A DNA stretch of 63,769 bases, counting the filler, from Reclinomonas americana ATCC 50394 (Eukaryota), in NCBI GenBank assembly GCA_048213135.1. It is 5 parts of 4 records of this genome, joined end to end, with 100 filler letters (N's around TTAATTAATTAA, not from the genome) between each part and the next. Parts side by side here need not be neighbours in the genome. Positions count along the whole stretch, not along the records: positions 30,843 to 43,777 come from PS015155.1; positions 43,878 to 53,067 come from PS015155.1; 3 more parts are not named here. One strand, 5' to 3'. The notes beneath the pieces are model-generated. The model was not told where the DNA came from. It ran no database searches and saw only the letters and a list, made by a program, of their open reading frames with translations. A program made the position numbers and the translations under genes. Positions 29,893 through 63,708 of the stretch are shown here, one piece after another (the first letter of the stretch is position 1; each line of letters begins with the position of its first letter).

Positions 29893-30432
29893 GGACTGTC
29901 TACGTTTCTGGTGCTTGCTTACACGCGAGAGACATCATCGATATCGATATCATGCAGGATTGGTTGCGCGTTGTCGATCCCCATGCTCGATCAGAGCTCG
30001 AAGGCGCCGAGCCGACGGTTGCAGCTTCGTCGCAACCATGTTTTGCGCATGGATGGCGTCAGTGATGCAACCCGACAACTGGTGCAGCGATGCTATTTCC
30101 GCACATTTGTCGTGTTCGGAACGGCGAAAACCAATGAGACGATCGAGACCACAAGAGACGACTGTAGCTCTGCAGCTGGCGCTGCACGTCGCCTGATAGC
30201 ACAAAGAGCACACGCATGCACTCATCTCCGATCGCTCTGTTTCGGAGATTCATGCAAAAGACAGCGGAGTTGCAAAAAAACCGTCACTCTTCGATCGATC
30301 GCATTCGCCAACTCCGTGCACCTGCTCCGTTTCTTGCGCCGGTGGGTGTCATATCACTTCAGAGGCCATTCACGCGCAGAGGCAACTTCACCTCAACACA
30401 CACGCACACGCTTTATTCTCTCTGATCCCATC

Positions 30433-30593
30433 ATGGAACGTCGCCTTCGCAGCATCCTCGCTCACTGCACAGTCGACAACGTTGCCGGTGACAGTGGCAG
30501 CAGCAGTGCGCTGGGTGCCTCTGGAGTCATGTCGGAGCACGCACACTCTGCGGGCGACAAGCTCAAGGTGGCGATTCTCGGCAGTGGTAACTG
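30433..30593 (+). CDS. GPD1: NAD-dependent glycerol-3-phosphate dehydrogenase, first exon only (rest lost at assembly join)
   Basis: KLKVAILGSGNW(G) is the GPDH Rossmann signature; it is followed by a GTGAGT donor. Confidence 0.8.
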
Positions 30594-30709
30594 GTGAGTG
30601 ATTGTGAGCAAGGGATCGGAGAGGATGCAGAGACCGAGAGGAGCACTCTCTGGCACACTGCACACACACACACACGCACACTGGCACACTGATCACTGGT
30701 GCACTCACT

Positions 30710-30742: not shown

Positions 30743-30786
30743 NNNNNNNNNNNNNNNNNNNNNNNNNNNNNNNNNNNNNNNNNNNN

Positions 30787-30798
30787 TTAATTAATTAA
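30787..30798. other. Artificial assembly linker TTAATTAATTAA in a 100-nt N spacer
   Basis: Flanked by 44 N on each side; stop codons in all frames. Confidence 0.95.
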
Positions 30799-30903
30799 NN
30801 NNNNNNNNNNNNNNNNNNNNNNNNNNNNNNNNNNNNNNNNNNCGTGTGTGTGTGTGTGTGTGTGCGGCGATCCTTGTCGACCGACGTTGAATTCTGATGA
30901 TAG

Positions 30904-33900
30904 GAGTCGTGGATGAAATTGACGGCTGAAGTCGAGAACGAAGAGGATCCGATTCTGCCGTTTGTGACGGAGGCTGTGGGTGCGTTGCGTGAGTGCCGTG
31001 GTCTCTTGAGTGCTCTGCTGCGAGGCAACCAGCTCTCGGAAGCCGAGATATCACGTGCTGTTGTGTGGTGCCAGTCCAAGGGTGTGTATTCTTGTGACAA
31101 GAGTGGTGCTATTCGCACCGGTCGGTGCTCAGTAGCACAACACAGATGTGAAGATGGAGGAGGCGGAAGAGGAGGACGAGGACGAGGACGAAGATGACGA
31201 CGACGAGGATGAAGAATATGAGGACGAAGATGACGACGAGGACGAGGACGAAGAAGATGACGAGGACGCTGACATCAAGGTTTGCGAGAGAGGAGTATTC
31301 AGGCGAGAGAGAGCGAGAGAATGAGCATTGGACCATGCACCCAGCCAGGCATTTCATGGCTCGCGTTCACAGGTGCATGGGGGCGGTGACGATGAGAAGG
31401 ATGATGATGGAGGATCAAAGCCGAGAAAGGTATGGCAATGTGCATGCCGTTGAATGATTGGTGAGGCTGGTGTGCTGATTGCAAATGCTGCGCGGGATGT
31501 GAACGCGCAGCATGGATTCCATGATCGGCGTGTGTTTGCCAAGAGCCTGAGCAAGAATGAGCGAGCGGTCCTGCAGAAACTGCTTGTTGCGTGCAGATGT
31601 TGGCATCGCGATGAGCTGCGATTGTTTCTCACGACGCCTCGTTTTTGTGAACAGCAATGCAACAGGAAGAAGGTGATGGTAGCAGCTTTTGGTATCATGG
31701 CACCCGTTGTACTGGAGCCTACAGTCCTGCATCATCGTCAAGTACTTTGTGACCTTGCATGCAAGGACTGTGGTGTTCCGTTGTCGGGAGCTGGAAGCCC
31801 GTCGTCTGCAGTTGTGAACGCATTCGGCACGAGTATTCGTAATATTGCGGACCATGCACGCAGAGAAACACCCAGATCAGTGCAGGGAGTACTTCGGAGT
31901 ATGAGCAACTGCATTCAGGTGCGCATCCATTTGCGTTATTTGCCTCGTACGACAAACACTCTTGACACTGCATGTGTAATCCACAGAAGAGTGAACTACG
32001 CGGTGCGGCGCTGTCAGATGCCATTTTGAACCCGATGATTGTTGTCGATGAGCGTGGCTATTCGGAGGTGCGTTGTCTCTCCAGCACGTACATGGCACGT
32101 GTTGGGCACTGTCGTCTCATCGTCGATGCTCTGGGGATTCGCGCGACAGGAAGTGTCGAAACTACTTAGGCTGCGTAGCAACGCACAAAATCGACTCCAG
32201 CCGTATATCCCACAGGCCGTGGAGATACTCCACAACTATCCTGGCCTGCTTGCCACTCTGCTTCGCGACGGTTACCTGTCTAAGGCGGAGATTGCACGTG
32301 CCGGTAAGTGATGGACATGACCTCAGCGCACCTTCTGTTCCTGGACGTACCGCCCGTGAGACTGACAAATGTGGTACAGTGCTGGAGTACGGACAACCAG
32401 TGAGAGTGGCGACTGTGATGAGCAAGGAAGAGAAGAAGCAGGAGGAAGAAGGAGACGCAGAAGAAGATGACTCTGATGGCCTAGAAGAGGACGACGACTC
32501 CCAGGTACGCGGTCGTGGTACCTGGGGACTGGAAGAAAACCGTGCACTCAGCCAAGCATTTCATGGCTCCCCACCACAGGCGCATGTCGGCGCTGACAAT
32601 GAGGGTGATGATGATGGAGTGTTGAAGCAGAGAAAGGTACGGCCACGTGCAAGGAGTTGAGGATTTGTGGAGCACGTGTTGTTCACTATCATTGTACACT
32701 GGGCAACCATGCGCAGCAAGGAATCCATTATCGGCGCGTGCTTGCTGAAGACTTGAGTGAGGATGATCGATTGGTCTTGCAGCAATTGCTTGTTGCGTGC
32801 GCATGTTGGCATCACACATGTGTTATATTGTTTCTTCGCGAGCCTCATTGTTTTCGTGAACAGATGTGCAACAGGAGGAAGGTACTGGTGACAGCTTTTG
32901 GCATCATGGCGCCTGTTGTGATGGAATCCACAGTCCTGCATCATCGTCAAGTTCTTTGTGACGTTGCATGCAAAAATTGTGGTGTTCCGTCGTCGGGAGC
33001 AGGAAGCCCGTCGCCCACTGTTGTGCGCGCATTTTGCACGAGTATGCGTTATGTTGCCAACCACACATGCAGCAAGACGGCCAAGTCAGTCGAGGGAGTG
33101 CTGCAGAGCATGAGCCAGTTCATTGAGGTTCGCAATCGCATCTGTGTTATTTCGACTTACAACAAGAGCTAACGCCGCTCCATGTACAATCGTGCAGAAG
33201 AGTGATCTACGCGGAGCTGCTTTGTCAGATGCAATCGAGAAGCCACTCTTTGTCGTAGACGAGCGTGGACATTCAGAGGTGTGCTGTCTGTCCTGCATGC
33301 ACATTGCGCATGCTGAGTAGTGTTGTCTCACTATCTGTGTCCCGGGGTTCGCATTGCAGGAACTGTCGAAACTGCCAAGAATGCAGTCCATTCTGCTTAT
33401 TCGACTCCTGCCGTATGTCCCGCACGCCTTGCGAGCTCTCCGCGACTGTCCTGACCTGCTGGCCACTCTGCTTCGCGACGGCTGTCTGTCCGCAGCGGAG
33501 ATTGCACGTGCCGTCAAGTGGTGCGATGAACGAGGTGTGTCCGTGTGCTCTTCATAGTTGCTGTCGATGCTGTTGCCGACAAGCAGGTGACAGCTGTGCG
33601 GGAAATGGAGATAATGGACGAAGCGAAGAAGGGCGACGACAAACTGAAAGTTGGTGTCGATGATGATGACGATGAGCAGGAGGACGGCGAAGAGAAGGGT
33701 AATGGGGGGAACAAGGTTCGGTTGTCGTTGATGTATCTGTGATGTACGACAGGGGCGTGCCTCTCATCGCTGCGTGATTTGTATTCGCAGCCCAGAAGGA
33801 GTGGTTCTGTGAAGCTTAGCAACAGCGAACAACAGATGCTAACGACGCTGCTTGTTGCGTGCTGTCGCATCCGCTGTCTCTGTTGTCTGCTTTGCTTACC

Positions 33901-36900
33901 ACGGCCGCGTTTTCCGTGACGCCGGAGAGCAGAACTGCAACAGGAAGAGGGTGATGGTGGAGGCGTTCGGTTTGATGGCGCCCATCGTGATGCCGACGAC
34001 AGTCCGCCATCATCAGCGACTTCTCTGTGAGCTTGCGTGTGACGATTGTGAGATGCCGTCGGAGGGACTGGGAAGTCCGTCATCCGCAGTCTTGTCTGCT
34101 TTCAGCAACAGTCTGTGCAATGGCGCCAGAGATATGCGTAACAAATCGGTCAAGTCGATTGCTGGTGTGTTGAAGAGCATGAGCAGCTTCATCGAGGTGA
34201 GCGTGAGTGTTCTTCTCTTATTGCACATGACCTTGAGGTGTTCTTGGCACCCACTTGTTCGTGTGTGTATATGTGTGTGTGGAAACTATCAGAGGAGCGG
34301 TCTGCGAGGAGCTGCGCTTGCGGCTGTTGTCGAGCGACCACTTATTGTGATTGACGAGTGCGGCTACTCTGAGGCATGTGCAATATTGCATACATTTGCA
34401 TGCTGCTGTTTACTAAAGGTCATTGTCGACTCACTTTGCAAACTCTGGGCGGCAGGAATCAGCGAAACTGAAGAAAGACAACGGCCAGACAAATAATCTG
34501 CAGCCGTTCGTGACGCAAGCCACGCAAGCTCTACGCAATTGCCCTGGCTTGCTGGCCTCTCTGCTTCGCAATGGTTGCGTGTCCAAGGCGGACATCACAC
34601 GTGCCGGTGAGTGGTGAACGAGCACACGACTCTGAGAACCTGCTGTTCCTTGACGTGCCGCCTGTGAGAATGACAAATGGCGTGCAGTGCTGGTGAACGA
34701 ACAGCCAGTGAGGGTGGCGGCTGTGAAGAGCAAGAAAGAGGAGGAGGAGGAGGAGAAAGAAGAAGGAGAAGAAGAAGAGGATGAAGATGGTTGCGATTAC
34801 TCTGAGGTACGCAGACATGGTACCTTTGGACTGGAGGCAGATCACTCACTGAGTCAGGCACTCATGGCTCTCCCCCACAGGTGCATGCTGGCAGTGACGA
34901 TGATGATGGTGATGAAGAAGAACCACAGCCGAGAAAGGTATGGCAAGGGGCATCGCTTGGTTGTGGATGCTTGATGAGGCTGGTCTGTTGACTATCAGTC
35001 TTGCATGGAATGTGTATGCGCAGCGCGGACGCCAGGATCGGCATGTGTCTGCCGAAGACGTAAGCAAGGAAGAGCGATCGGTCCTGCACAAACTGGTAGT
35101 TGCGTGTGTGTGCTTGCATCATCTCTGCGAGGCCCATCGCATCAAGTGATGCATCTGCTGTTTACTTTGCTTACTCACATGTGTATGTATGTGTGAACAG
35201 CGGTGCAACAAGCACAAGGTTCTCGTCGTGGCGTTCGGCATCATGGCACCCACGGTGATGCCATGCACTATCGTACATTATCAGCGCGTTCTGTTTGAAC
35301 TTGCCTGCAAGAGCTGTGGAATAGCAGCACCATCGGGAGCAGGCAGTCCATCGTCGGCCGTGATGAGCGCCTTCAGCAAGAGCCTTTGCAAGGTCACCGA
35401 CCATGCGCGTCGAGGGACGGCCAGGTCGGTTGAGGGAGTGCTCGAGAGTATGAGCCAGTTCATTGAGGTGAGCTTCCCCGTGTGTCTGTTCTCTGTTCGA
35501 TTCCCACGATGACCAAGAAATATATCCCTTGCGTGTGCAAACACACAGAAGAGTGATCTACGTGGCACTGCGCTGGCGAATGTCATTGATACACCGTTGA
35601 TTGTGGTGGACGAACGAGGTTACTCGGTGGTGAGTGCGTCATCGTCTGTGGTGTTGTCGACGTACGTCTCACAGCATGCACGTTATAGGAATCGTGGGAT
35701 AAGACACCGCAGCCACAGAGGAGTAGCAATCCTCTTGCATCGTTTGTGTTCCAGGCGTCGCTGGCGGTGCGCGAGTGTCGAGGTCTGCAGACGTCGCTTG
35801 TTCGGGACGCGCGTCTGTCTGAGGCGGAAATTGCACGTGCCGTCAAGTGGTGCATAGCCAGAGGTAATTGCGAGTCTTGTTTGCGGTCGGCGCGTGATGG
35901 GTGTCGGCCTCACAGGGGGGAGGGATTGTAGCACCTGCTGAAGAGAAAGTCGTGGCGAAAGCGAGAGATATGGAGATGGAGGAGGAGGAGGAGGAGGAGG
36001 AGGAGGAGGAGGAGGAGGAGGAGGAGGAGGAGGATTCAACGAGCAGCAGCGAAGAGGTTGAGTGCCGATTGGATATGGTGCGCATTGGATGGCAAGAGGT
36101 GGATGCATGTATATATGTGGCTGCAACTCAAATATGTGCATTCGCAGCAGCGGCGCAATGGAGGTCCTTCGACGCTGAGCACAGACGAGCAATTGATGTT
36201 GAAGAGGCTTCTCGTTGCGTGTTGTTGTGTCGACGTGACTGCCAGACAAATGTCATGATCTCATCCGTCCGCACACTTGGAAACAGGATTGCAACAAGAA
36301 GAGAGTGCTGGTGAAGGCGTTCGGAATCATGGCACCGCTCGTGATGCGAACCACAGTCTGGCATCATCAGCGCCTTCTCATTCAGCTTGCTTGTGACGAG
36401 TGTGGAGTCTTGTCGGAGGGACCTGGCAGCCCGTCGTTTGCTGTAAAAAGTTCTTTCCGCAAAACGCTCGGCAAATGCGCCGAAAGTTCGCGCAACTCCA
36501 CGCCTCGGTCTGTCGAAGGCGTACTCCAAAACATGAGCAACTTCGTGGAGGTTAGTCGTCAGTCTTGCATTGTTCGTTCGGACCGTCCGTCAATATTGCA
36601 ACCTGCAGATCAGTGAACTTCGCGGTGCTGCTCTGGTGGCAGCCATTGAGAGGCCGATGATTGTTGTGGGAAATCGTGGACATTCCAAGGTGAGCTACCT
36701 CTCCGAAGCTCGATAAGTGCGTGCGGAGTGGTGCTTAGCCACGCTTGTGATTCGCATGGCAGGAGTCGGCCAGTTTGCCGAAAATCAGGCGTTATATGCA
36801 GAATCCTCTTCTGCCGTTTGTCACACAAGCCGTGGACGCTCTTCACATTTGCCCCGGTTTGCTGGCCACTCTGCTTCGAGACGGTTGTCTTTCGAAGGCG

Positions 36901-38673
36901 GAGATTGCACGTGCTGTCGAGTGGTGCAATGAGCGAGGTTTGCGGCATTCGACTTGTGTCGGGACAATGTGGGCCATTTTATTGACAAGCTTGCAACAGC
37001 TCCCAGAGACGTGAAGATGGCGGAGAGAGGACAAAGTCTGAAGAACGAGCAAGAGGATGATGTCAGTGACGGCAGTGAGGNNNNNNNNNNNNNNNNNNNN
37101 NNNNNNNNNNNNNNNNNNNNNNNNNNNNNNNNNNNNNNNNNNNNNNNNNNNNNNNNNNNNNNNNNNNNNNNNNNNNNNNNNNNNNNNNNNNNNNNNNNNN
37201 NNNNNNNNNNNNNNNNNNNNNNNNNNNNNNNNNNNNNNNNNNNNNNNNNNNNNNNNNNNNNNNNNNNNNNNNNNNNNNNNNNNNNNNNNNNNNNNNNNNN
37301 NNNNNNNNNNNNNNNNNNNNNNNNNNNNNNNNNNNNNNNNNNNNNNNNNNNNNNNNNNNNNNNNNNNNNNNNNNNNNNNNNNNNNNNNNNNNNNNNNNNN
37401 NNNNNNNNNNNNNNNNNNNNNNNNNNNNNNNNNNNNNNNNNNNNNNNNNNNNNNNNNNNNNNNNNNNNNNNNNNNNNNNNNNNNNNNNNNNNNNNNNNNN
37501 NNNNNNNNNNNNNNNNNNNNNNNNNNNNNNNNNNNNNNNNNNNNNNNNNNNNNNNNNNNNNNNNNNNNNNNNNNNNNNNNNNNNNNNNNNNNNNNNNNNN
37601 NNNNNNNNNNNNNNNNNNNNNNNNNNNNNNNNNNNNNNNNNNNNNNNNNNNNNNNNNNNNNNNNNNNNCTGATGGCGCGCATGGAAATGGTCGCAGCAAG
37701 GTACACTTTCGTGGCTAAATACGCGAGAGAAATGCGCACCTAATCGCTCCATGACTCGGATTCGCAGTATCACAGTAGGACCCAACCTGCGAGACTGAGC
37801 GTCAACGAACACTTGGTACTTACAAAACTGATTGTTGCGTTGTCTGCATTGCATCCGCGACTATGTTCGCTGCACCTCACACGCCTGTCACACTCGAGAT
37901 CAGGAAAGCAACAGGAAGAGGGTGCTGGTGAAGGCATTTGGTCTCTTGGCGGCGGTGGTAAAGGGGTCCACAGTTCTCCATCATCAGCGCGTTCTGTTCC
38001 AACTTGCCTGTGACGAGTGCGGCATGCCATCGAAGGGACCTGGCAGTCCATCGTCTGCTGTCATGTCAGCATTTGGCAAGAGTTCTGCTTTTACTGCTAA
38101 CAATGCGCGCCAAACCACGGTCAAGTCGATGGAAGGCGTGCTCCAGAGCGTCAGCAACTTCATCGAGGTGAGACTCTCGTCCAACGACGACAATTGCAAG
38201 GCAAATAACTAACTCGAATTCTTCACGAGGGCAGAAGTGCGGCCTACGAGGAGCTGCGCTGGCGGATGCCATCAGGAGGCCACTGATTGTGATCGACGAG
38301 AGTGGCTACTCTGAGGTCTTGGTGACTTGTTGTAGGCGCGCAGCTATGCGCTGATAATGTGGACTCATCTCGCGCTGTGTCTTGGTTGCAGATATCGGCA
38401 GACCCGAAACAGAAGCCTGACAAAGATGTTCTTCGTCCCTTTGTCGTGCAGGCCATGCATGCCCTTCACAACCGTCCCGGTCTGCTTGCCGCTCTGCTCC
38501 GAAACGGTTGTCTTTCGGAGGCGGAGATTGTGCGCGCTGGTGAGTTCTGCAAACGCAGGCAATCTGGCGTCACGTGTTGTTTGCTCCTCTTCGTTCTCTG
38601 TAATGTCACTGACGAGCGAAATGCAGCGTCAAATCCAGTTGGCGACAAGTTGGTGAAGAAAGAGGAGGAGTAA
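30904..38673 (+). CDS. Giant tandem-domain protein A (7 units of an unrecognised ~190-aa Cys/His domain with acidic linkers); 5' truncated
   Basis: Repeated exon set; ~264-nt core exons start at about 31655, 32864, 33931, 35201, 36287 and 37904. Junctions I checked are in frame. Stop at 38671-38673 is provisional. Confidence 0.75.
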
Positions 38674-39406
38674 GGAGGAAGAGGACGGAAGTGAGAGGTG
38701 AATGCGACGAGCATGATATTGCTGCATATCTGTATCTATCTGCTCCGGTGTGTGTGGCTGGTGGGAGTGAGAGAGGAAGAGATTTCACAGAGTCAGTGGC
38801 GTTTGCTGGTTTCCATGGTCGATGGCGCGAGAATGCAGTAGCACAGTGCACCAGAGAGATGGGATCCATGTATGTGAGTCTCCCTCTGCGCCGCTGATCG
38901 GTGTGCTTGTAGGGGTGAAGAGAAACATAAGAGCCGTACTCTCATGACGAGCACTGAAAGCTGTCGAAACGTTGACTGACCTCAGGCGCCTTGAGAGAGG
39001 GAGCAGTCGCGTGGTTGTGGGGTAGCTTGTTCGCTGTGAAGAGACACAGATGTCCAGTGCAACCGCAACTGTTGGTCCGCGATCGGGACCAGAACCATGG
39101 TCGGGACCCCAATGCGATAACATGTGTGGCCAGAGGCTGTTCATCGGAGTGCTGCTGCTCAGTGTGGGTGTCCAGAGAAAGAAAGAGAGACACGCACGGC
39201 AGGTGTTGACGGGCGGCTGTAGTTTACAACGCACGAGAAACCTCGCCTCTCTGTTTCGTCCCCTTCCCTCCTCTCATCACAAATGCTTCATGCTGGTCGG
39301 ATCAACGGAACTTTAGCTGCACGTCGCTCTTGGACGGAGACAAGCACAGATGGCCTCTCGAGCACCACCACCACGCCCTCACTCAACAACAACTGCTCCG
39401 CTCACA

Positions 39407-42400
39407 ATGTCTGCCTCGTCTCAGCGCAATGCGAGAGCGAACATGCTGATCGAAAGCAGGCATCACATGTTGACGCATTCCTCCTCCTCTTCCGCCTCCT
39501 CCACCAACAGCAGCAATGACAAGGAGAGTGCGTCGACTCACAGTGCACTTGCACCGTCGAGTCGACGAGTGGCCACCTCCTCTTCGTCTTCTTCTTCTTC
39601 TTCGTCCACTTNNNNNNNNNNNNNNNNNNNNNNNNNNNNNNNNNNNNNNNNNNNNNNNNNNNNNNNNNNNNNNNNNNNNNNNNNNNNNNNNNNNNNNNNN
39701 NNNNNNNNNNNNNNNNNNNNNNNNNNNNNNNNNNNNNNNNNNNNNNNNNNNNNNNNNNNNNNNNNNNNNNNNNNNNNNNNNNNNNNNNNNNNNNNNNNNN
39801 NNNNNNNNNNNNNNNNNNNNNNNNNNNNNNNNNNNNNNNNNNNNNNNNNNNNNNNNNNNNNNNNNNNNNNNNNNNNNNNNNNNNNNNNNNNNNNNNNNNN
39901 NNNNNNNNNNNNNNNNNNNNNNNNNNNNNNNNNNNNNNNNNNNNNNNNNNNNNNNNNNNNNNNNNNNNNNNNNNNNNNNNNNNNNNNNNNNNNNNNNNNN
40001 NNNNNNNNNNNNNNNNNNNNNNNNNNNNNNNNNNNNNNNNNNNNNNNNNNNNNNNNNNNNNNNNNNNNNNNNNNNNNNNNNNNNNNNNNNNNNNNNNNNN
40101 NNNNNNNNNNNNNNNNNNNNNNNNNNNNNNNNNNNNNNNNNNNNNNNNNNNNNNNNNNNNNNNNNNNNNNNNNNNNNNNNNNNNNNNNNNNNNNNNNNNN
40201 NNNNNNNNNNNNNNNNNNNNNNNNNNNNNNNNNNNNNNNNNNNNNNNNNNNNNNNNNNNNNNNNNNNNNNNNNNNNNNNNNAGAGAGAGAGAGAGAGAGA
40301 GAGAGAAGAGAGAGAAGAGAGAGAGAAGAGAGTGTGTGCATTTTTGTGCGTCTTCATCTCGCTCTCCCTTTCTCTTTGTCTCTCACCTGCGAGTGCATTC
40401 ACGCAGATGCTAGTCGGGAGCACTCGCATCACGCAGCAGCGGAAGGCTCTGTCGAGGTGCGGCGATTCTCCATTCCGATGCAAATGAATTCCGCTCACTC
40501 GAATCATTCTCTCTCTCGTTTCTCTCTTGCTCTCTCGCGTGGCACTGTTCGCGCAGCATCGTGCGAGGAGGCAACCAACCAATGTGTCTCTCGTGGAGCA
40601 CAATGCAAGAAATGTGCCTGTTCGGAGTCCAGCTGAGGCGTCGGCCCGCAAGCGTTCTCTGGAGGTGAGCTCCCTCGAAGGGAGGCGCCTCTCGCAACCA
40701 CGTGCATCGCAGTTGACACGGATGCTTCATCGTTTGCAGCAAGTGGATGGAACCGGCAATGATGAGCTTGCACCGCCGCAAAAGAAGGTGGGGGGTGTGG
40801 TGTCTCTCAATGTATTTGTCTTCTTGGTCAACATGTTTGCTTTGTTACACCCCACAGCGCGACGTGGACACGGCGCAGGCTGTGGGTGGGACAGATGGAT
40901 TCAGTGTGGACGAAGAGCTCGTGCTGAAGAAGCTGCTTGTTGCGTGTGTGTGTGCGATGAAGCAGGCTCTCTTCTTCTTCTGCACTCATCCTCTGTTCCT
41001 CACGAGCAGGTGTGCAACTGGAAGCGAATACTGATAAAGGCATTCGGTGTGATGGCGCCCTTTGTTCAAGAATCGACAGTCTTGCACCATCAGCGCGTTC
41101 TCTTTGAACTTGCGTGCAACGACTGTGGAATCGCGTCATCGACTCCGGGTCGCACAACGGCCGCCGTGCTGCGTGCATTCGACAAGAAGCTTGGATGGAC
41201 CACGAGTCATTCACGCAAACGAACACCGAAATCGGTGGAGGGTGTGCTGCGGCGAGTGAGCAATTTCGTCGAGGTGAGTACATGCACATAACGCCCCTTC
41301 GTGTGTGTCGCANNNNNNNNNNNNNNNNNNNNAGGAGTCGTGGATGAAATTGACGGCTGAAGTCCAGAAGGAAGAAGATCCGATTCTGCCATTTGTGACG
41401 CTGGCCGTGGGTGCGTTGCGTGAGTGCCGTGGTCTCCTGGGTGCTCTGCTGCGAGACAGTCGCCTCTCGGAAGCCGAGATATCACGTGCTGTGGTGTGGT
41501 GCCAGTCCAAGGGTGTGTATCCTCGTGCCAGGATTGGTGCTGTTCGCACCGGTCGGTGCTCAGCAGTGCAACGCAGATGTGAAGATGGAGGAGGCGGAAG
41601 AGGAGGAGGAGGACGAGGATGAAGAATACGAGGACGATGAAGATGACGAGGACGATGACTTCAAGGTCTGCAAGAGTGGAGAGAGCATGATTGCAAAGTG
41701 CGTAGATCCATGCGCTCACCCAAGCATTTCATCGCTCGCGTTCACAGGTGCATGGAGGCGGCGACGATGAGAAGGATGATGATGCAGAATCGAAGCCGAG
41801 ACAGGTTCGCAAATGTGCATGGCTGTAGTTGATAGTGAAGTCATGTGTTCACTATTGCCGCACATACGGCAACCATGCGCAGCGTGGAATCCAGAGTCGG
41901 CGAGTGTTTGCCAAGAGCCTGAGCGAGAATGAGCGGTCGGTCCTGCAGAAACTGCTTGTTGCGTGCTCTTAGCAATTTTGTGAGGCGGATTGTATGCCAC
42001 CTCAATTCGCTTGTGCACAGGGGTTCAACAGGAAGAAAGTATTTGTGATAGCATTCGGCATCATGGCTCCAGTTGTGATGGAGTCCACAGTCCTGTATCA
42101 TCATCAGGTACTTTGTGACCTTGCCTGCAAGGACTGTGGCGTGCCGTCGTCGGGAGCGGGAAGCCCGTCGTCAGCAGTTGTAGGCGCATTCGCCACGAGT
42201 CTTGGTAATGGTGCCGATAATGCACGCAGAAATACCGCCAGATCAGTTGAAGGAGTGCTTCTTAGCATGAGCAAGTTCATTGAGGTGCGCTTTCACCTCT
42301 GTGTTCTTGCGACATCACAACAAGAGCTAACACTGCTTCATGTACAATCGTACAGAAGAGTCTACTGCGCGGTGCTGCTCTCTCAGACGCAATCAAGAAG

Positions 42401-45400
42401 CCACTCTTTGTGGTGGACGAGCGTGGGCATTCGGTGGTATGCTGTCTATCCTTCACGTGCTTCGTGCGTACCGTAGACTGTTATCTTACGTTCGCGTTTC
42501 ACCATTGAATGTCAGAAATCGTCGGCTATTATTTCGCACAACAGACAACATCTTCTGCTTCCGTTCGTCGCACAAGCTTTACAAGCACTCCACAACTGTC
42601 CTGGCTTGTTGGCCGCTCTGCTTCGCAACGGTTGTCTGTCTGAGGCGGAGATTGCACGTGCTGGCAAGTGGTGCAACGAACGAGGTTTGGCTGTGTGTCA
42701 CAACCTTTTGGTATTGTTTGGTATGAGATGACTCACAAGCAGGTGACGTTGGCAGGCTTGAAAGCGGTTGCATTGGTGGAGGAAGAGCGGAAGCGTGAAG
42801 TCGTGCAGAGGGATGGTGAGGATGGCCATATGAATCTGAAGGTGTATGGCCGGAAGAAGGTGTGGTTGTAGGTATTTGTGCGATGTGATTCTTAGAGAGT
42901 GTACATCTATCTCATCGCTGCATTGTTCGTATTCGCAGCTCCCAAGGGCAGACCCCGTGAAGTCGAGCAACGGCGAACAACAGATGCTGACCACGCTGCT
43001 TGTTGCGTACTGTTGCTTCCGCTNNNNNNNNNNNNNNNNNNNNNNNNNNNNNNNNNNNNNNNNNNNNNNNNNNNNNNNNNNNNNNNNNNNNNNNNNNNNN
43101 NNNNNNNNNNNNNNNNNNNNNNNNNNNNNNNNNNNNNNNNNNNNNNNNNNNNNNNNNNNNNNNNNNNNNNNNNNNNNNNNNNNNNNNNNNNNNNNNNNNN
43201 NNNNNNNNNNNNNNNNNNNNNNNNNNNNNNNNNNNNNNNNNNNNNNNNNNNNNNNNNNNNNNNNNNNNNNNNNNNNNNNNNNNNNNNNNNNNNNNNNNNN
43301 NNNNNNNNNNNNNNNNNNNNNNNNNNNNNNNNNNNNNNNNNNNNNNNNNNNNNNNNNNNNNNNNNNNNNNNNNNNNNNNNGCCTCTGTTGTCTACTTCTT
43401 TTGTCACTGCCCTCTCCGTGACACTGGCGTGCAGGACTGCAACGCTAAGAAGGTGATGGTGAAGGCATTTGGTCTGATGGCGCCGATTGTGATGGAATCG
43501 ACAGCCCGTCGCCACCAGCGACTTCTCTGTGAGCTTGCCTGTGACGATTGTGGAATACCGTCGAAAGGACCGGGAAGTCCATCAGCCGCAGTCATGACTA
43601 CATTGGGCACCAAACTGGTTAATTCCGCCAGTAGTGCACGCCGCAGCACGCGCAAGTCCACCGATGGCGTGCTACAGAGCATGAGCAGCTTCATCGAGGT
43701 GAGTGTGAGTGTTTTCTTGTGTTCTATGTGACATTGCGGTGTGCTTGCACTCACTTGTTCGTGCTTGGAATCATCAGNNNNNNNNNNNNNNNNNNNNNNN
43801 NNNNNNNNNNNNNNNNNNNNNTTAATTAATTAANNNNNNNNNNNNNNNNNNNNNNNNNNNNNNNNNNNNNNNNNNNNAGGAGCGGTCTGCGAGGAGCTGC
43901 ACTGGCGAATGCTGTCGAGAGACCATTGATTGTGATTGACGATTGGGGCTACTGTGAGGCATGTACACCAAGGCTTTTTTTTTGCTGCGGAATGCTGTAT
44001 AGGTTATTGTTGGCTCACTTTGCAATTTCTGGGGCGGCAGGAATCGGCAAGACTGAGGATTGATAATGGTCAGACAAACAGTCTGCAGCCGTTCGTGACG
44101 CAAGCCATACAAGCTCTTCGCAGCTGTCCTGGCTTGCTGGCCTCTCTGCTTCGCAACGGCTGTCTGTCCAAGGCGGATATCACACGTGCGGGTGAGTGGT
44201 GAACGAGCGCATGATCTTGGCACAGCTGATGTTCCTTGACGTGCCGCCTGGGAGGCTGACAAATGCCGTGCAGTGCTGGTGAACGAGCAGCCAGTGAGAA
44301 TGGAGACTGTGAAAAGCAAGAAAGAGGAGGACGAAGAGAAAGAAGAGGAGGACGAAGAAGATAATGACGATGACTCTAAGGTACGCAGAAATGGTACTTG
44401 AGGACCGTACGCAGATCATGCACTCATGATCAGTCAAACATTCGTGTCTCTCGTCCGCAGATGCATGCTGGCGTTGACGATGATGATGGCGATGAAGGGG
44501 AATCGAAGCCGAGAAAGGTACGGCAAGGGGCATGGCTTGGGATGTCGATGCTTGGTGTTCTAGACTCTAACTGCCAACGCTGCGTGGAATATGCATGTGC
44601 AGTTTAGTCTCCATCGATATCGCGTCTTTATCAAAGACCTGAGCGAGGACGAGCATTCGGCCCTGCAAACATTGCTTGTTGCGTGCTCATGTCCGCTGCT
44701 CGTCTGAGCGGTGGATTGCATCTATTGACGCTTCGTTGTTTTCGAGCACAGCGGTGCAACAAGATAAAACTACTGGTGAGAGCATTCGGCATCATGGCAC
44801 CAGTTGTGATGGAGTCCACAGTCCTGCATCATCGTCAAGTTCTTTGTGATCTTGCATGCAAGGACTGTGGCTTGCCGTCGTCGGGAACTGGAAGCCCGTC
44901 GTCCGCAGTTGTGGGCGCATTCGGAACGAGCCTTGGCAGTAGTGCCAGCAAAGAACGCAGAAGGACGGTCGACTCAGTTGAAGGAGTGCTGCAGAGCATG
45001 AGCCAGTTCATTGAGGTACGCGTCCGCCTGTGTCGTTTCGACTTACAACAACAAGAGCTGACGCCACTGCATGTGCACTCAATCGTGCAGAAGAGTGAAC
45101 TGCGCGGTGCTGCTTTGTCGGATGCCATTTTGAAGCCATTGATTGTTGTCGACGAGCGTGGCCATTCAGAGGTATGCTGTTTCTCCAGCATGTACATGGC
45201 GCGTCTGTATAGTAGTGTCTCACCGTCAATGTCCCGGGATTTGCTTGTCAGGAACTGTCGAAACTGCCAAGAATGCAAAGCAATCTGCTTAATCGACTCC
45301 TGCTGTATGTCCCGCCGGCTGTGCAAGCTCTTCGCGGCTGTCCTGGCTTGCTGGCCTCTCTGCTTCGCAACGGCTGTCTGTCTGAGGCGGAGATTGCACG

Positions 45401-46465
45401 CGCTGTCAAGTGGAGCACGACCAGAGGTGAACTGTGACGCCTGTGTACAGTCTACGCGTGATGTGTCTCACAGGGGGATGGGGGGTTGTAGCACGCGTTG
45501 AGGAGAATGTGGTGGTGAGAGGGAGAGAAATGGTGGTGGAGGAAGCAGACCAAGAGGAGGAGGATTCAACGAGCGGTGGCGAGGAGGATGAGTTCCGTGG
45601 GAATAAGGTAGGCCCATGGATGGCAAGCGCAGAGTGCATGTGTGTGGCTGCAATTTCATGTGTGTGTTCACAGCAGCGGCGCAAAAGTGGTCCTGCGACG
45701 CTGAGCGAAGCGGAGCTACTGGTGTTGAAGAACCTGCTCGTTGCGTATTGTTGAACACTGTCGTTAGGATTGCCGAACTGCTGTCATGAACTCATCCATC
45801 CACACACTTGCGAATAGGAATGCAACAGGAAAAGGGTGCTGGTGAAGGCGTTTGGTCTCTTGGCTGCGGTGGTGAAGGGGTCCACAGTGCTTTGTCATCA
45901 GCGCGTTCTCATGCAGCTTGCCTGTGACGAGTGCGGCATGCCAGCGGAGGGACCCGGAAGTCCATCGTCCGCAGTCATTTCTGCATTTGGCAGTAAGATT
46001 TCTTATTCTGCGAATTCCATACGGCACACGGCTGTCAAGTCGATGGAAGGGGTGCTGGAGAGTGTAAGCAACCTCATCGAGGTGGGTTTCTCGCTCGGCA
46101 ATGACGAGACAAATAGCTGACTCGCATTCTTCATGAGGGCAGAAATCCGGTCTTCGAGGAGCTGCGCTGGCGGATGCTATCAGGAGGCCACTGATTGCGA
46201 TTGACGAAAGTGGTCACTCTAAGGTCTGTGGGTGGACTTGATTCTCTGCGATGCTGGCCTATGATGAAGTTTACGATTGCGCCTCCTGTTGCAGATATCA
46301 GCAAGGTTGTTGCAGAGGAAAGGCACTCCGGATTTATTGCGACCAGTTGTCGCACAGGCTATACACGCCCTTCACAACCATCCCGGTCTGGTGGCCGCTC
46401 TGCTCCGAAACGGTTGCCTTTCGAAGGCGGAGATTGTGCGTGCCGTCGCGCGTGGCAAAGGGTAA
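39407..46465 (+). CDS. Giant tandem-domain protein B (5 units), paralog of A
   Basis: Ser-rich N-terminus, then core exons at about 41010, 42021, 43435, 44751 and 45818. Exon at 41335 is nearly identical to the one at 30904. Start and end are provisional. Confidence 0.7.
43822..43833. other. Artificial assembly linker
   Basis: TTAATTAATTAA within an N run. Confidence 0.95.
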
Positions 46466-46496: not shown

Positions 46497-47745
46497 TCAT
46501 CGTCGGCAAGGGATTTGTGGACATTTGTCGCATTATTGGAATGTGGTGAATGAAGCGTTTTGTTTGTTTTTACACACATGTGTTGTGTTGATGTTTTGGA
46601 TACGGTTGAACTTTGTCACAGTGACATCTCCCGTGAGCAACGCCATTATCAGCGACAACCACTCAACAACAACAACAACAAATTCATTTGCTAACAAACA
46701 TGTACAAGCAACAGCTGTCTTGATGACCAAGGTCAATCGTATCCAAAACATCAACACAGACGTCGACACCAATCTTGAGGCAGCAGCAGGTTCCTCGTGT
46801 GTGTGTGTTCGCTCTCGGAGCTCCGAACAAGTCGAGAACTGCGATCTTCACCGCATAAGCGTGGTTGCAATTGACCAGTGGATTTGACGCACTTGCATAG
46901 ACNNNNNNNNNNNNNNNNNNNNNNNNNNNNNNNNNNNNNNNNNNNNNNNNNNNNNNNNNNNNNNNNNNNNNNNNNNNNNNNNNNNNNNNNNNNNNNNNNN
47001 NNNNNNNNNNNNNNNNNNNNNNNNNNNNNNNNNNNNNNNNNNNNNNNNNNNNNNNNNNNNNNNNNNNNNNNNNNNNNNNNNNNNNNNNNNNNNNNNNNNN
47101 NNNNNNNNNNNNNNNNNNNNNNNNNNNNNNNNNNNNNNNNNNNNNNNNNNNNNNNNNNNNNNNNNNNNNNNNNNNNNNNNNNNNNNNNNNNNNNNNNNNN
47201 NNNNNNNNNNNNNNNNNNNNNNNNNNNNNNNNNNNNNNNNNNNNNNNNNNNNNNNNNNNNNNNNNNNNNNNNNNNNNNNNNNNNNNNNNNNNNNNNNNNN
47301 NNNNNNNNNNNNNNNNNNNNNNNNNNNNNNNNNNNNNNNNNNNNNNNNNNNNNNNNNNNNNNNNNNNNNNNNNNNNNNNNNNNNNNNNNNNNNNNNNNNN
47401 NNNNNNNNNNNNNNNNNNNNNNNNNNNNNNNNNNNNNNNNNNNNNNNNNNNNNNNNNNNNNNNNNNNNNNNNNNNNNNNNNNNNNNNNNNNNNNNNNNNN
47501 NNNNNNNNNNNNNNNNNNNNNNNNNNNNNNNNNNNNNNNNNGCATAGCGTTTTCTGCGATCGTACGCGGCACATCGAATTCGGGGAAAGGCCAGTAGCCA
47601 GCTGCAGCTGCACGTTGCCTGGCTTTGTTGGTTATTCCTATGTGTTCTGACACCAACACCTCTTGCTATCTTTCTGCATTCCTTTTTTGGAATTCGGCGT
47701 CAAATCCATGCTTGTCGCGAGCCGTGGTTTCTCTTGCTGAAACGC
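46497..47745. repeat. Composite of dispersed repeat families A, B and C; possible degenerate non-autonomous mobile element
   Basis: A at 46497-46570, inverted B fragment at 46583-46620, B at 46680-47600 (gap inside), C at 47658-47745. Confidence 0.65.
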
Positions 47746-48130: not shown

Positions 48131-51100
48131 ATGTCGTTTGCTCCCGACATCCGCAACCCCATGGGTCGCATGCTCATTCGTGAGCACATGAGATAGTTGC
48201 GTATGTGTGTGTGAGAGAGTGAGTGAGTGAGAGTGTGAGAAGAAAACTGCACAACGTGTAACTGTCATGTCGAAGAGGGTGTTGCACTCAGAGCCATGAG
48301 AGAGAGAGAGAGGGGGAAGGAGAGCATACAAAGCACACTGCTCTCTCTCGCTCATTACTCACATGCAATCTGACCTGATCTCCTCTCTCACATACTTGCA
48401 CACATAGAGACAGTGTGTGTGTGTGTTTGCTTCTGATAGTGAGGCACACTCACTCACACTCAGGCTCACGCACACACACACACACACACACTCTCTCTCT
48501 CTCACTCACTCACTCACACTCTCACTCACTCACTCACTCACTCACTCACTCACTCACTCACGCACTCACTCACCACTGTCACACACAACTCACTCTCTCT
48601 CTCTCTCTCACTCACTCACTCACTCACCCCCTCTCTCTCACACTCACGCACTCACTCTCTCTCACACACACACACACTCACACACACACTCGCACTCACT
48701 CACTCACTCTCTCACTCACTGCACACACTCACCCCCTCTCCCACTCACTCACCCCCCTCTCTCTCTCACTCACTCACTCTTCTTCTCCCTCTCCCCTTCT
48801 CAGTCATGTCGCGCGAGTGAGCACTGCCAAGTCCTCTGTGGACGCACACACGCCCTTCTCCAGCGCGGAGGCTGGTGGTGGCAAGCGCGGAGCAGGTGCT
48901 GGTGCTGCTGGAGGAGGAGGTGCAGGTGGTGCAAGTGGGAGTGGTGGGGGAGGTGATGGGAAGCGCGGGCCGAGTACTGCTGGTGAGATATAGGGAAANN
49001 NNNNNNNNNNNNNNNNNNGGGAGGGAGGGAGGGAGGGAAAGGCGGAGAGCTGAGGCTTGAAGAGGCGAGATGCAGCTGAGAAAGGTGAAGTATGACAGGC
49101 TACAGAGAGAGAAAGAGAGGGAGACAGAGAGCTGAGGCTTGAAGAGGCGAGATGCTCACAGGTACGAGGGAGCATGAGCGTAAGGATAGACAGACGCCCA
49201 CAGTGGGAAAGTTAAAGCGTGACAGGCATTCTCGCGCACACACAAAGGGAGAAAGAGAGGTAAAGCAAGNNNNNNNNNNNNNNNNNNNNNNNNNNNNNNN
49301 NNNNNNNNNNNNNNNNNNNNNNNNNNNNNNNNNNNNNNNNNNNNNNNNNNNNNNNNNNNNNNNNNNNNNNNNNNNNNNNNNNNNNNNNNNNNNNNNNNNN
49401 NNNNNNNNNNNNNNNNNNNNNNNNNNNNNNNNNNNNNNNNNNNNNNNNNNNNNNNNNNNNNNNNNNNNNNNNNNNNNNNNNNNNNNNNNNNNNNNNNNNN
49501 NNNNNNNNNNNNNNNNNNNNNNNNNNNNNNNNNNNNNNNNNNNNNNNNNNNNNNNNNNNNNNNNNNNNNNNNNNNNNNNNNNNNNNNNNNNNNNNNNNNN
49601 NNNNNNNNNNNNNNNNNNNNNNNNNNNNNNNNNNNNNNNNNNNNNNNNNNNNNNNNNNNNNNNNNNNNNNNNNNNNNNNNNNNNNNNNNNNNNNNNNNNN
49701 NNNNNNNNNNNNNNNNNNNNNNNNNNNNNNNNNNNNNNNNNNNNNNNNNNNNNNNNNNNNNNNNNNNNNNNNNNNNNNNNNNNNNNNNNNNNNNNNNNNN
49801 NNNNNNNNNNNNNNNNNNNNNNNNNNNNNAAGAGGCGAGATGCTCACCGGGGCAAGTGAGCATGAACGTAAGGATAGACAGACGCCCACAGTGGGAAAGT
49901 TAAAGCGTGGCAGGCATTCTCGCACACACACAGAGTGAGAAAGAGAGGTAAAGCAAGAAGAGGCGAGAAAGGCACCGGGGCAAGTGAGCGTGAGCATAAA
50001 CGTAAGCACAGTAGTACGACTACAGACATAGAAAGCGGAGAAAGGTCAAGTTTGACAGGCATTCTCGCACAGAGAGAGAGGGAGAGAGTTGAAGCAGGAA
50101 GAGGCGAGACGAGACGTCCACTACCAGAAGCCCACACAAAAAGAAAGCGGAGGAAGATGAATGTGATTGCTTAGATGAAGGAAATGAGAGCTAAAGCGAG
50201 ACGCTCAGAGATGCAAGGTAGCATGGGCGTGGTAATGAAGCCAATCTCACAAGCAGAGAAAGCCGAGAGTGCTTTGGTGTGACTGGCATTCTCGCACACA
50301 CAGAGAGATAGAGAGGTAAAGCAAGAGGAGGCGAGACTGGCATGGGGTAAAGGCAGAATGGGTGCAGCAGAATTAGAGAAAGCAACAAGCTCACGCACGT
50401 AGGCGAAGTGTGGCATTCATTCTCATGAAACGCAAGAATAAGCAAAAAACGGCAAGTAGAAAAGAGTGTGTGTGCGGGAGAGAAGGCGAGGGTGAGAGGA
50501 AGATACATGTCTTCTATTTTACTCTCTGGCGACCCAACCTTGGCGTCATGTGACCCTAATCTACTTCACTGTCGCTGCTCGAGTTGACTCACGAAAAGTT
50601 CTATGCTCCATTTCCTCTCCCCTCTTCTCGTATTTCTCACTGTGGGCAAGTCTCCTCTCCTATTCCCTCTCCCATTACCCTCGCCCCTTTCCCTCCCTTT
50701 ACCCTCGCCCCTTTCCCTCCCTTCACCCTCGCCCCTTTCCCTCCCTTTACCCTCGCCCCTTCACCCTCCCATCTCACACCTCCCCTCCCACAGCCCGCCG
50801 ACCCGTCGACTGGACTCGCGACCTGGTCAGCAAAGCCGCCCGAGCCACTGCTGCCGAAGCCTCGTTTCGTCTCATATCCTCCCTCTCTCCTGCATTGCTC
50901 CCCCTCCTGCTCAATCACCCCCTCCTCTCTTCGTTTACCCCCAGAGGCCAGCAAGGAGCGGCAGCCGGGGCCAGTGGAAAATCACGGGCACGACCCACCA
51001 GCGCCTCCTCGAAGCGCGGCGACGCCTTTGACGAGGATTCTCAATTTTATCATCGAGTTTCGTTTGTCATCTATTTCTTGAGTTTTGGCCCCATGCGCTC

Positions 51101-53067: not shown

Positions 53068-53111
53068 NNNNNNNNNNNNNNNNNNNNNNNNNNNNNNNNN
53101 NNNNNNNNNNN

Positions 53112-53123
53112 TTAATTAATTAA
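53112..53123. other. Artificial assembly linker
   Basis: TTAATTAATTAA within an N run. Confidence 0.95.
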
Positions 53124-53167
53124 NNNNNNNNNNNNNNNNNNNNNNNNNNNNNNNNNNNNNNNNNNNN

Positions 53168-54160: not shown

Positions 54161-54479
54161 TAAGCTTTCAAGCTCTTCGAATTCGTTTGTTGCCTCCCGT
54201 TGTCAGCTTTACTCTAACAGAGAGTAAGATCGAGGCATTGATGAGCGAGATACACGCGCATTCGTGCTGTGTTAGAGGCGCGCGCAGTTGCAACGTGCGA
54301 CGTCTTCTTTGTCGACGTCGACTGTCGACAGTTCATCTTCATTCGTTGCGCTTTGTTGACGTCATCTGCTATGCAAGTGCCTGCCTCTTTCTTCCGCGCA
54401 GCTGTCTCGCGCTGAGAGCATGAAGTTGAAGTTACCTATGACACTCTCCGTCCCTTCGAATTCCTCTCCTGAGTCGCGC

Positions 54480-55583
54480 ATGTCGTCTGCAACTCCTCCC
54501 TCCCTCCCTCACACGTGCTTGCGTGGACACGAGGCAGAAGTGGTGTCGGTCGCCGTCACTCCCAATGGCCAGTTTATTGTGAGCGGGAGTCTTGACAAGA
54601 CAGTGCGTGTGTGGTCCCTGGCGAGTGGGGAGGAAGTGCGTCGGTTTGAGGGACACACTCAAGCTTTGTGGTCTGTCGCCGTCACTCCTGATGGACAGCA
54701 CGTGGTGAGCGGGAGCGCTGACACCACTGTGCGAGTGTGGTCGCTGGCGGGCGGGGAAGAAGTGCGGCGGCTGGAGGGACACACCAAGGGAGTGACGTCT
54801 GTCGCTCTCACTCCTGATGGTCAGTTTGTTGTGAGTGGGAGTGGAGACTGGACGGTGCGAGTGTGGTCACTGGCGAGTGGCGAGGAGGTGTGTCGGTTGA
54901 AGGGACACACTCGTGTGGTGCGCTCTGTCGCTGTCACTCCCGACGGTCGGCACGTGGTGAGTGGGAGTCTGGATCACACGGTGCGAGTGTGGTCACTGGC
55001 AAGTGGAGAGACGGTGTTGCGGCTGGAGGGACACATGACGTGGGTGACCTCGGTTGCCGTGTCACTCGATGGTCAGCATATTGTGAGTGGCAGCTTCGAC
55101 TGGACTGTACGAATGTGGTCCATCGCAAGTGGCGAAGAAGTGCGACGATTCGAGGGCTACACTGGTCCGGCATATGCTGTTGCCGTGTCTCCCGACAATC
55201 GGCACATGGTGAGCGGAGATCGAAACAGGTACATTCGTGTGTGGTCGCTAGCTGCTGGCCAGGAAGTGCGGCGGCTAAAGGGGCATGCCGCTGATGTGTC
55301 TTCTGTTGCCTTCACTCCCGATGGTGAGCTCATTGTGAGTGGTAGTGACGACAAGACTATCCGCGTGTGGTCGACACCGCGTGGTCTTGCGCGGCAGGAG
55401 CTCCAGTGTGCGCGACTGGCGATGCAGGCTGTACAGGCGATGCAGCGTGAGAGCTATGATGATGACGACGACGACAAAGAGGATCCACGTTGTTTGGTGG
55501 AGATTGTGATGCGATGCTTCTTGGTGGAGGAGGCGGAGGTTCTTGTTTATCGGTGTTTCGCCGATGACAGTCTCCTGCTTTGA
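54480..55583 (+). CDS. Intronless WD40 protein, same family (array 2)
   Basis: Starts MSSATPPSLPH, 7 WD repeats, ends DPRCLVEIVMRCFLVEEAEVLVYRCFADDSLLL. Confidence 0.93.
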   Translation: MSSATPPSLPHTCLRGHEAEVVSVAVTPNGQFIVSGSLDKTVRVWSLASGEEVRRFEGHTQALWSVAVTPDGQHVVSGSADTTVRVWSLAGGEEVRRLEGHTKGVTSVALTPDGQFVVSGSGDWTVRVWSLASGEEVCRLKGHTRVVRSVAVTPDGRHVVSGSLDHTVRVWSLASGETVLRLEGHMTWVTSVAVSLDGQHIVSGSFDWTVRMWSIASGEEVRRFEGYTGPAYAVAVSPDNRHMVSGDRNRYIRVWSLAAGQEVRRLKGHAADVSSVAFTPDGELIVSGSDDKTIRVWSTPRGLARQELQCARLAMQAVQAMQRESYDDDDDDKEDPRCLVEIVMRCFLVEEAEVLVYRCFADDSLLL

Positions 55584-56224
55584 TGAAGATGGAGAGACGC
55601 GCCCGGGGACTCTCTCTCTCTCTCTCCCTCTCNNNNNNNNNNNNNNNNNNNNNNNNNNNNNNNNNNNNNNNNNNNNNNNNNNNNNNNNNNNNNNNNNNNN
55701 NNNNNNNNNNNNNNNNNNNNNNNNNNNNNNNNNNNNNNNNNNNNNNNNNNNNNNNNNNNNNNNNNNNNNNNNNNNNNNNNNNNNNNNNNNNNNNNNNNNN
55801 NNNNNNNNNNNNNNNNNNNNNNNNNNNNNNNNNNNNNNNNNNNNNNNNNNNNNNNNNNNNNNNNNNNNNNNNNNNNNNNNNNNNNNNNNNNNNNNNNNNN
55901 NNNNNNNNNNNNNNNNNNNNNNNNNNNNNNNNNNNNNNNNNNNNNNNNNNNNNNNNNNNNNNNNNNNNNNNNNNNNNNNNNNNNNNNNNNNNNNNNNNNN
56001 NNNNNNNNNNNNNNNNNNNNNNNNNNNNNNNNNNNNNNNNNNNNNNNNNNNNNNNNNNNNNNNNNNNNNNNNNNNNNNNNNNNNNNNNNNNNNNNNNNNN
56101 NNNNNNNNNNNNNNNNNNNNNNNNNNNNNNNNNNNNNNNNNNNNNNNNNNNNNNNNNNNNNNNNNNNNNNNNNNNNNNNNNNNNNNNNNNNNNNNNNNNN
56201 NNNNNNNNNNNNNNNNNNNNNNNN

Positions 56225-58002: not shown

Positions 58003-58290
58003 CCTGCTTTGGAATGGATACGGGGAGGGGGAGTGGCGCTCTCTCCCTATCTCCCACCCTCCGTCCCTTCCACTCTCGTGCCTTTTTTGTCTTGTCTGCC
58101 TCATCATTTCGGATTCATTTTCATCGGCACTCTGCATTTCTTTCGTTTGCGATTTTGCCGACTTCTCACCTGTTTCTCGCTTTCCTTCGCCCAGTAAAAG
58201 AAGTGTGCATTGTTGACAAGGTGCACTCTGACGACGTTAAACGTGTCCTTTCCTTTTCAGGACGCGCTCTCCCACACGCACACATCCGTC

Positions 58291-61478: not shown

Positions 61479-61522
61479 NNNNNNNNNNNNNNNNNNNNNN
61501 NNNNNNNNNNNNNNNNNNNNNN

Positions 61523-61534
61523 TTAATTAATTAA
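61523..61534. other. Artificial assembly linker
   Basis: TTAATTAATTAA within an N run. Confidence 0.95.
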
Positions 61535-63700: not shown

Positions 63701-63708
63701 GTACGTTT

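Follow-up and report, generated by a model that had tools for sequence, protein, structure and literature searches.

The window analysed here, a 63,769-nt stretch of DNA from Reclinomonas americana ATCC 50394 (GCA_048213135.1), is a gapped eukaryotic scaffold with 27 runs of N, a GC content of about 0.52-0.60 in the stretches that contain sequence, and short introns of the GT-AG type. Between 30.9 and 46.5 kb, its + strand carries tandem copies of a multi-exon unit of about 1.0-1.6 kb, which make up two adjacent genes for large modular proteins, with a module of roughly 190 residues repeated 5-7 times in each (Table 1). A repeat search of the window recovered direct-repeat families of 7-11 copies, spaced by 1,011-1,623 nt or by multiples of this, from 30.9 to 46.4 kb, and a scan of the three + frames anchors the peptide motifs of the module solely between 30.9 and 46.5 kb. 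A preliminary description of this DNA had reported a unit of about 1.2 kb repeating together with its introns, peptide patterns for four exons (A to D), and linker exons rich in aspartate and glutamate (D/E-rich). The repeat families agree with the first of these claims, the peptide patterns match our alignments, and D/E-rich linker exons are indeed present between the units. Overall, this is a real, constrained and lineage-specific repeat-protein locus.

Exon B is present in 11 copies of 88 amino acids (aa; 89 aa in one copy), all flanked by AG and GT and all free of stop codons. Exon C was found in 10 copies of 27 aa, with eight GT donors and two GC donors and with one acceptor masked by N; an eleventh copy presumably lies inside the 20-N gap at 41313-41332. 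Exon D occurs 12 times and exon A 11 times, and every exon A ends directly before the donor GTTGCGT. The array thus totals 11 modules and one further module seen as exon D alone, so that the 12 copies first counted hold for exon D and become 11 plus one partial copy when complete modules are counted. The introns between exons A and B measure 63-102 nt in 10 of the 11 units, often with a length that is not a multiple of three and sometimes with stop codons, and that of the eleventh unit contains an N gap. Identity per alignment column averages 70% in exon B and 62% in exon D. The invariant residues of exon B are C36, C39 and 16 others, and H27 is nearly invariant, which makes the Cys/His label given to the domain a fair description. 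When the units between successive D exons were aligned with MAFFT (10 of 11 units; one of 2,951 nt, which contains a large N gap, was excluded), blocks with a conservation of 0.7-0.88 alternated with poorly alignable stretches. Comparison of the exon B and exon D alignments with hhalign detected no internal similarity.

The splice sites show two peculiarities. GTTGCGT is an atypical donor, yet it is used in all 11 A-B introns (31586, 32792, 33854, 35099, 36214, 37834, 40939, 41958, 43002, 44678 and 45740), whereas the remaining donors of the locus resemble GTGAGT or GTGCGC. In addition, GC-AG introns follow exon C at 34374 (unit 3) and 43959 (unit 9); these positions are paralogous, and the GC donor is therefore older than the gene duplication discussed below.

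Table 1. Modelled exons of the two repeat genes, N-free blocks of the splice models, and other features of the window.
Feature	Position	Strand	Details
Gene 1	before 30904 to 38673	+
Gene 1, first visible exon (D type)	30904-31081	+	AG acceptor, GT donor, fits D alignment; its exons A-C lie outside the assembly
Unit 1 (type I)	31146-32303	+	E1 31146-31279 (acidic), E2 31373-31429, A 31511-31585, B 31655-31918, C 31987-32067, D 32150-32303
Unit 2 (type I)	32380-33534	+	E1 32380-32504, E2 32580-32636, A 32717-32791, B 32864-33127, C 33198-33278, D 33360-33534
Unit 3 (type II)	33594-34606	+	E1 33594-33715, A 33791-33853, B 33933-34196, C 34293-34373 (GC donor), D 34456-34606
Unit 4 (type I)	34688-35863	+	E1 34688-34806, E2 34881-34937, A 35024-35098, B 35201-35467 (89 aa), C 35549-35629, D 35689-35863
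Unit 5 (type II)	35932-36937	+	E1 35932-36098, A 36148-36213, B 36287-36550, C 36609-36689, D 36763-36937
Unit 6 (type II)	37000-38539	+	Linker open from ~37000, broken by N 37081-37668; A ends 37833, B 37904-38167, C 38235-38315, D 38392-38539
Gene 1, terminal exon	38627-38673	+	E1-like, cut short by TAA 38671-38673
Gene 2	~40722 to 46465	+
Unit 7	40722-41512	+	Exon 40722-40787, A 40858-40938, B 41010-41273, D 41335-41512
Unit 8 (type I)	41577-42684	+	E1 41577-41665, E2 41748-41804, A 41883-41957, B 42021-42284, C 42356-42436, D 42516-42684
Unit 9 (type II)	42756-44191	+	E1 42756-42859, A 42939-43001, B 43435-43698, C 43878-43958 (GC donor), D 44041-44191; N 43024-43380 in A-B intron, N 43778-43877 in B-C intron
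Unit 10 (type I)	44274-45426	+	E1 44274-44380, E2 44461-44517, A 44603-44677, B 44752-45015, C 45091-45171, D 45252-45426
Unit 11 (type II), end of gene 2	45474-46465	+	Linkers 45474-45514 and 45557-45607, A 45674-45739, B 45818-46081, C 46143-46223, D 46295-46465; TGA 46463-46465
Gene 1, block a	30904-36937	+	29 exons, 1,309 codons
Gene 1, block b	37904-38673	+	179 codons + TAA
Gene 2, first block	40722-41273	+	137 codons
Gene 2, second block	41335-43001	+	360 codons
Gene 2, third block	43435-43698	+	88 codons
Gene 2, fourth block	43878-46465	+	554 codons + TGA
WD40 beta-propeller ORFs (4), closely similar tandem array	3842-9465	-	WD40 E 1e-63 to 1e-83 (range over both arrays)
ORF with AKAP7 2'5' RNA ligase-like domain	13947-14582	-	E 2.4e-6; 28 bits (cut-off 24.4)
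ORF ending ...KVAILGSGNW	30430-30597	+	Directly upstream of the N runs preceding gene 1
WD40 beta-propeller ORFs (3), closely similar tandem array	54360-60768	+	WD40 E 1e-63 to 1e-83 (range over both arrays)
Dynein heavy-chain exons	62012-63768	+	AAA_9 E 1.5e-22; Dynein_heavy D6 E 4.2e-35
ORF, open reading frame.

The exons are coding and under purifying selection, as the preliminary description had proposed. The ratio of nonsynonymous to synonymous divergence (dN/dS) of exon B is 0.13-0.47 in all 55 pairs of copies, with dS values of 0.31-2.47, and the copies are therefore both old and constrained. Mean pairwise differences at codon positions 1, 2 and 3 are 0.293, 0.208 and 0.485 for exon B (10 of 11 copies, unit 4 being dropped for its 3-nt insertion), 0.243, 0.166 and 0.505 for exon C, and 0.254, 0.185 and 0.487 for the core of exon D, so that third positions are the most divergent in all three. 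The corresponding control, an ungapped comparison of the first 57 nt of the intron 3' of exon B, gave 0.71, 0.60 and 0.71; exon B (0.21-0.49 per codon position) thus differs less between copies than its adjoining intron (0.60-0.71), and the earlier statement that coding motifs are better conserved than introns holds. Synonymous codon usage of the modelled coding sequence correlates with that of the neighbouring WD40 ORFs at 0.45, compared with 0.05-0.24 for the control frames (two other sense and three antisense). This preference for the modelled sense frame rules out the long antisense ORFs as the coding frame.

Gene models were obtained with splice-site matrices trained on 30 confident donors and 30 acceptors, which were combined with homology between units to model the linker exons. 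The donor consensus is AG/GTGAGT and acceptors end in YAG; among the 54 fully visible introns (42-102 nt, median 75), 52 are GT-AG and two GC-AG. The models resolve two paralogous genes, in line with the preliminary description, with gene 1 ending at a TAA in a short terminal exon and gene 2 at the TGA that closes exon D of unit 11. Because of eight N runs within 30.7-43.9 kb, gene 1 is not visible at its 5' end and units 6, 7 and 9 are visible only in part. All six N-free blocks of the models are free of internal stops, and the visible proteins amount to at least 1,488 aa for gene 1 and about 1,166 aa for gene 2; they are large, and the term "giant" applied to them earlier was an overstatement. 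The linker exon E1 of unit 5 holds a perfect (GGA)19 tract (35978-36034) that reads as poly-Glu.

The relationships among units record how the array was built. A tree of exon B separates type I units (units 1, 2, 4, 7, 8 and 10) from type II units (units 3, 5, 6, 9 and 11), and most type I units have an E2 mini-exon and a 25-aa exon A. The same tree pairs units across the two genes (units 3 and 9 with support of 89/95, units 6 and 11 with 99/98), and a multi-unit ancestor was therefore duplicated into two genes. Exon B is 75-81% identical within the cross-gene pairs 1-8, 3-9 and 6-11, and these are paralogues and not haplotype copies. Over 300 nt, the D exon that comes first in the visible part of gene 1 shares 90% identity with its counterpart at the beginning of gene 2, the first D exon there (41333-41632). 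The repeating exon set, from E1 to D, starts and ends in phase 1 with internal introns in phase 0: every adopted D-exon donor is in phase 1, the next exon restores the frame, and the six blocks are open. Because the set begins and ends in phase 1, tandem duplication with breakpoints in introns keeps the reading frame. The introns were duplicated along with the exons, and the array probably grew by unequal crossing-over within them; a later duplication of a multi-unit block would then have produced the second gene. A phase-symmetric exon set and co-duplicated introns are shared with proteins assembled from 1-1 modules by exon shuffling, although the module here belongs to no known family and is split over five to six very short exons. 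Phase-symmetric duplication is unusually clear at this locus, in which the introns, the two unit types and the second gene copy have all been kept.

We searched for relatives of the module using exon-coded pieces or contiguous read-throughs of the window as queries. Queries with the 11 copies of exon B, the 12 copies of exon D and the read-throughs A+B and B+C brought no Pfam or NCBIfam family to its curated cut-off. Sequence and profile searches of the PDB returned no relative of the module, the ESM Atlas gave no usable match whether queried with the B+C read-through or with exon B by itself, and a word-indexed protein search with exon B (proteins of 157-2000 aa) was likewise empty. An HMMER profile of exon B had no match at E <= 0.001 among 1,835,955,588 representative proteins. 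Scans with the exon-B alignment yielded 48 pattern matches in viral contigs, 349 in metagenome contigs and 23 in contigs of prokaryote genomes, with no confirmed relative in any of these sets, and a full-text literature search with five module motifs found no paper. The word-indexed collection contains entries from EukProt, MMETSP, Tara and NCBI eukaryotes, and the blank therefore does not simply reflect a shortage of protist data, although the proteome of the source organism is evidently absent. The failure of the preliminary description to recognise the family is thus borne out. What is new here is the domain, which has no detectable relative in sequence or, for the modelled part, in fold; the architecture and the mode of growth are of a known kind. 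Separately, a 27-residue match to the exon-D alignment in a metagenome contig (L001) was set aside as chance, the strand concerned having no ORF of at least 60 aa.

We computed two AlphaFold2 models, one for exon B, intron and exon C of unit 10 and one for exon A, intron and exon B of unit 2, using alignments of paralogue exons only. Both agree on four helices for exon B (residues 2-15, 21-39, 51-71 and from 76 onward), where the first model has a predicted local distance difference test score (pLDDT) of about 67-82 per 10-residue block, and the second model adds a helix for exon A. An all-alpha core is accordingly predicted for the module, as far as exons A and B are concerned. At the moderate confidence of these models, no fold match above background was detected. 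A complex prediction pairing the B-intron-C read-through with exon D scored 0.00 against a mark of 0.34, in a run that left the paralogue alignments unused and with a partner whose own fold is uncertain; the score thus speaks neither for nor against a packing of exon D on exons B and C. In the eight fully modelled units, the cores comprise 186-199 aa with a net charge of +3 to +13, 5-9 Cys and 2-6 His, and the linkers comprise 31-64 aa, encoded by one or two mini-exons, of which 29-67% are D or E. These acidic linkers are presumably disordered. The tandem all-alpha modules predicted here would resemble the helical-bundle rods of spectrin and talin. The alternation of basic folded or helical parts with D/E-rich tracts is shared with nucleolin, Nopp140 and the acidic tails of HMGB1 and UBF; the module here differs from these proteins in that neither an RRM nor an HMG domain was detected in it, nor any other domain known to bind nucleic acid.

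Taken together, we favour, at a probability of roughly 55%, the reading that the two tandem paralogous genes on the + strand each likely encode one long modular protein that serves as a lineage-specific, non-enzymatic, multivalent scaffold, a block polyampholyte. The acidic linkers would serve to space or mask the basic helical modules, whose own role would be to bind a partner (protein, nucleic acid or metal ion). Lineage-specific repeat proteins are common in protist genomes. As to the part of this reading that concerns linkage, we consider it quite probable, from the splice models, that each gene yields a single polypeptide. The preliminary description had argued the same from in-frame junctions between units. 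The six open blocks, the longest being block a of gene 1, agree with the claim, but the test of linker paths does not discriminate: an in-frame, stop-free path of plausible introns was found across all nine N-free linkers, and we dropped this test as evidence of linkage since wrong phases and shuffled linkers pass it too. Better support for one polypeptide comes from the conserved flanks of exons A and E2, the lack of a stop in the spliced frame of any unit, and the phase-1 ends of the exon set. Exon A and E2 retain their AG and GT flanks in 5/5, 5/5 and 4/4 copies, and their differences between copies are 0.16-0.42 compared with 0.48-0.63 in adjoining intron.

A number of observations weigh against this scaffold reading. 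Both proteins are predicted from splice models, and in-frame, stop-free paths exist for nine of nine linkers in both wrong phases and, when each linker was shuffled 20 times, in 40-100% of the shuffled versions. E2 and exon A show no clear third-position excess of change. In several units a stop codon follows closely, a few codons past the D-exon donor, and intron retention might therefore end products unit by unit. The 5' end of gene 1 is lost to N runs at 30743-30842, and the ATG at 40722 that begins gene 2 is putative, a guess. Confidence in the AlphaFold2 models is moderate (mean pLDDT 64.8 and 64.7, with a predicted template modelling score of 0.47), exon C falls below a pLDDT of 50, and the models span exons A-C, with exon D outside them. 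Finally, the scaffold function is our best guess, drawn from composition and architecture alone. We hold as possible but doubtful a variant in which the locus represents a new alpha-helical Cys/His family of one little-sampled protist lineage, a charge-patterned scaffold with metal- or nucleic-acid-binding modules and a fold without a solved counterpart.

Other functions can be read from the conserved residues of the module. The invariance of the CxxC motif of exon B (C36 and C39 in 11 of 11 copies) and the near-invariance of H27 could indicate that each module is a metal-binding (e.g., zinc) or thiol-redox domain and the whole protein a multi-site metal buffer, sensor or redox protein. Further cysteines in exon D (C before PGL and GC before LS, in most of the 12 copies) and the Cys and His content of the cores point the same way, as does the four-residue spacing of T23, H27, L31, A35 and C39, which places these residues on one face of predicted helix 2. 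We nevertheless regard this as unlikely, given that no zinc-finger or redox family reached threshold (the best, zf-AN1, appeared in one of 11 copies at E 0.42), that two of 11 copies have another residue in place of the first Cys of exon B, and that H27 and C36 lie nine residues apart on one predicted helix, which we infer to be too far for a shared ion. In oxidoreductases of the thioredoxin fold, which have a beta-alpha-beta core, the helix next after strand beta-1 carries the CxxC at its N-terminal end; in both models of exon B, at a mean pLDDT of only about 65, no strand is predicted and the CxxC would lie where helix 2 has its C-terminal end. Exon D, in turn, resembles a helix-turn-helix (HTH) element over its residues 33-57, where Pfam reports HTH_AsnC-type (PF13404) in four of 12 D exons (best E 0.02) and HTH_24 (PF13412) in three. 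Combined with the net basic cores, this could mean that the modules bind nucleic acid and that the acidic linkers are autoinhibitory mimics. Such a role appears quite unlikely to us: the likeness to AsnC-type and winged HTH domains is weak and local (stretch LLxxLLRxGxLSxAEIxRA, E 0.02-0.1), all scores (12.9 bits) lie well short of the gathering scores of 27 (PF13404) and 21.9 (PF13412), and a D-exon profile, which picked up 11 PDB sequences with E values of 10 or less, had no AsnC/Lrp or other HTH chain among them. Nor does exon D show an evident recognition helix; four of the 12 copies end right after the putative second helix (EIxRA), so that a recognition helix would need the acidic linker, and the others run on for 7-8 residues more until the acidic linker begins.

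Two further alternatives concern the gene products themselves. Successive units are nearly identical in architecture, and E2 closes with a conserved basic motif (KPRK, KQRK or KPRQ) in five of five type I units, as might be expected of a polyprotein cleaved in its linkers into monomers of about 190-250 aa. However, type II units are without the basic motif, no targeting presequence is visible at the guessed start of gene 2, and the linkers, with their high D/E content, vary in length and exon number and are not short conserved cleavage peptides of the kind that separate the units of the cleaved polyproteins of Euglena and dinoflagellates. Cleavage is thus very unlikely in our view. We give the lowest probability of all to the possibility that the units are separately expressed small genes or that the array is silent and decaying. 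The passing of the in-frame linkage test by its controls, and the stops that some D exons meet just past the donor if the intron is retained, are compatible with it, but the 11 B, 10 C and 12 D exons contain no stop or frameshift even though dS reaches 2.5, dN/dS stays below 0.5 throughout, splice sites are conserved, and the spliced frame lacks a stop in every unit. If expressed, the protein would be a candidate for a new domain family, would mark a lineage of eukaryotes that is poorly sampled, and would offer a tractable example of a charge-patterned repeat protein.

The repeat locus is flanked on either side by an array of closely similar WD40 ORFs, and the dynein heavy-chain exons at the end of the window indicate a flagellated source organism; their best matches, among proteins of 523-2000 aa in the same word-indexed collection, are 36-38% identical. 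Rfam and tRNA scans of the window gave no matches. The short ORF upstream of gene 1 ends in what we take to be a Rossmann-type N-terminus, like that of NAD-dependent glycerol-3-phosphate dehydrogenase, unconfirmed by Pfam (no match at E up to 1). The N runs that follow it, at 30743-30786 and 30799-30842 and just upstream of the first visible exon of gene 1, may stand for missing sequence or a misjoin, since nothing further of such a gene appears downstream. A pattern of 44 N, 12 bases and 44 N occurs at four places in the window (30743-30842, 43778-43877, 53068-53167 and 61479-61578), two of them within the locus, and looks like a scaffolding or masking artefact. Just past the end of gene 2, a dispersed repeat at 46704-46902 is 88.6% identical over 202 nt to a copy at 12010-12199, and a (CACT)~83 microsatellite occupies 48447-48779, also downstream of the locus.

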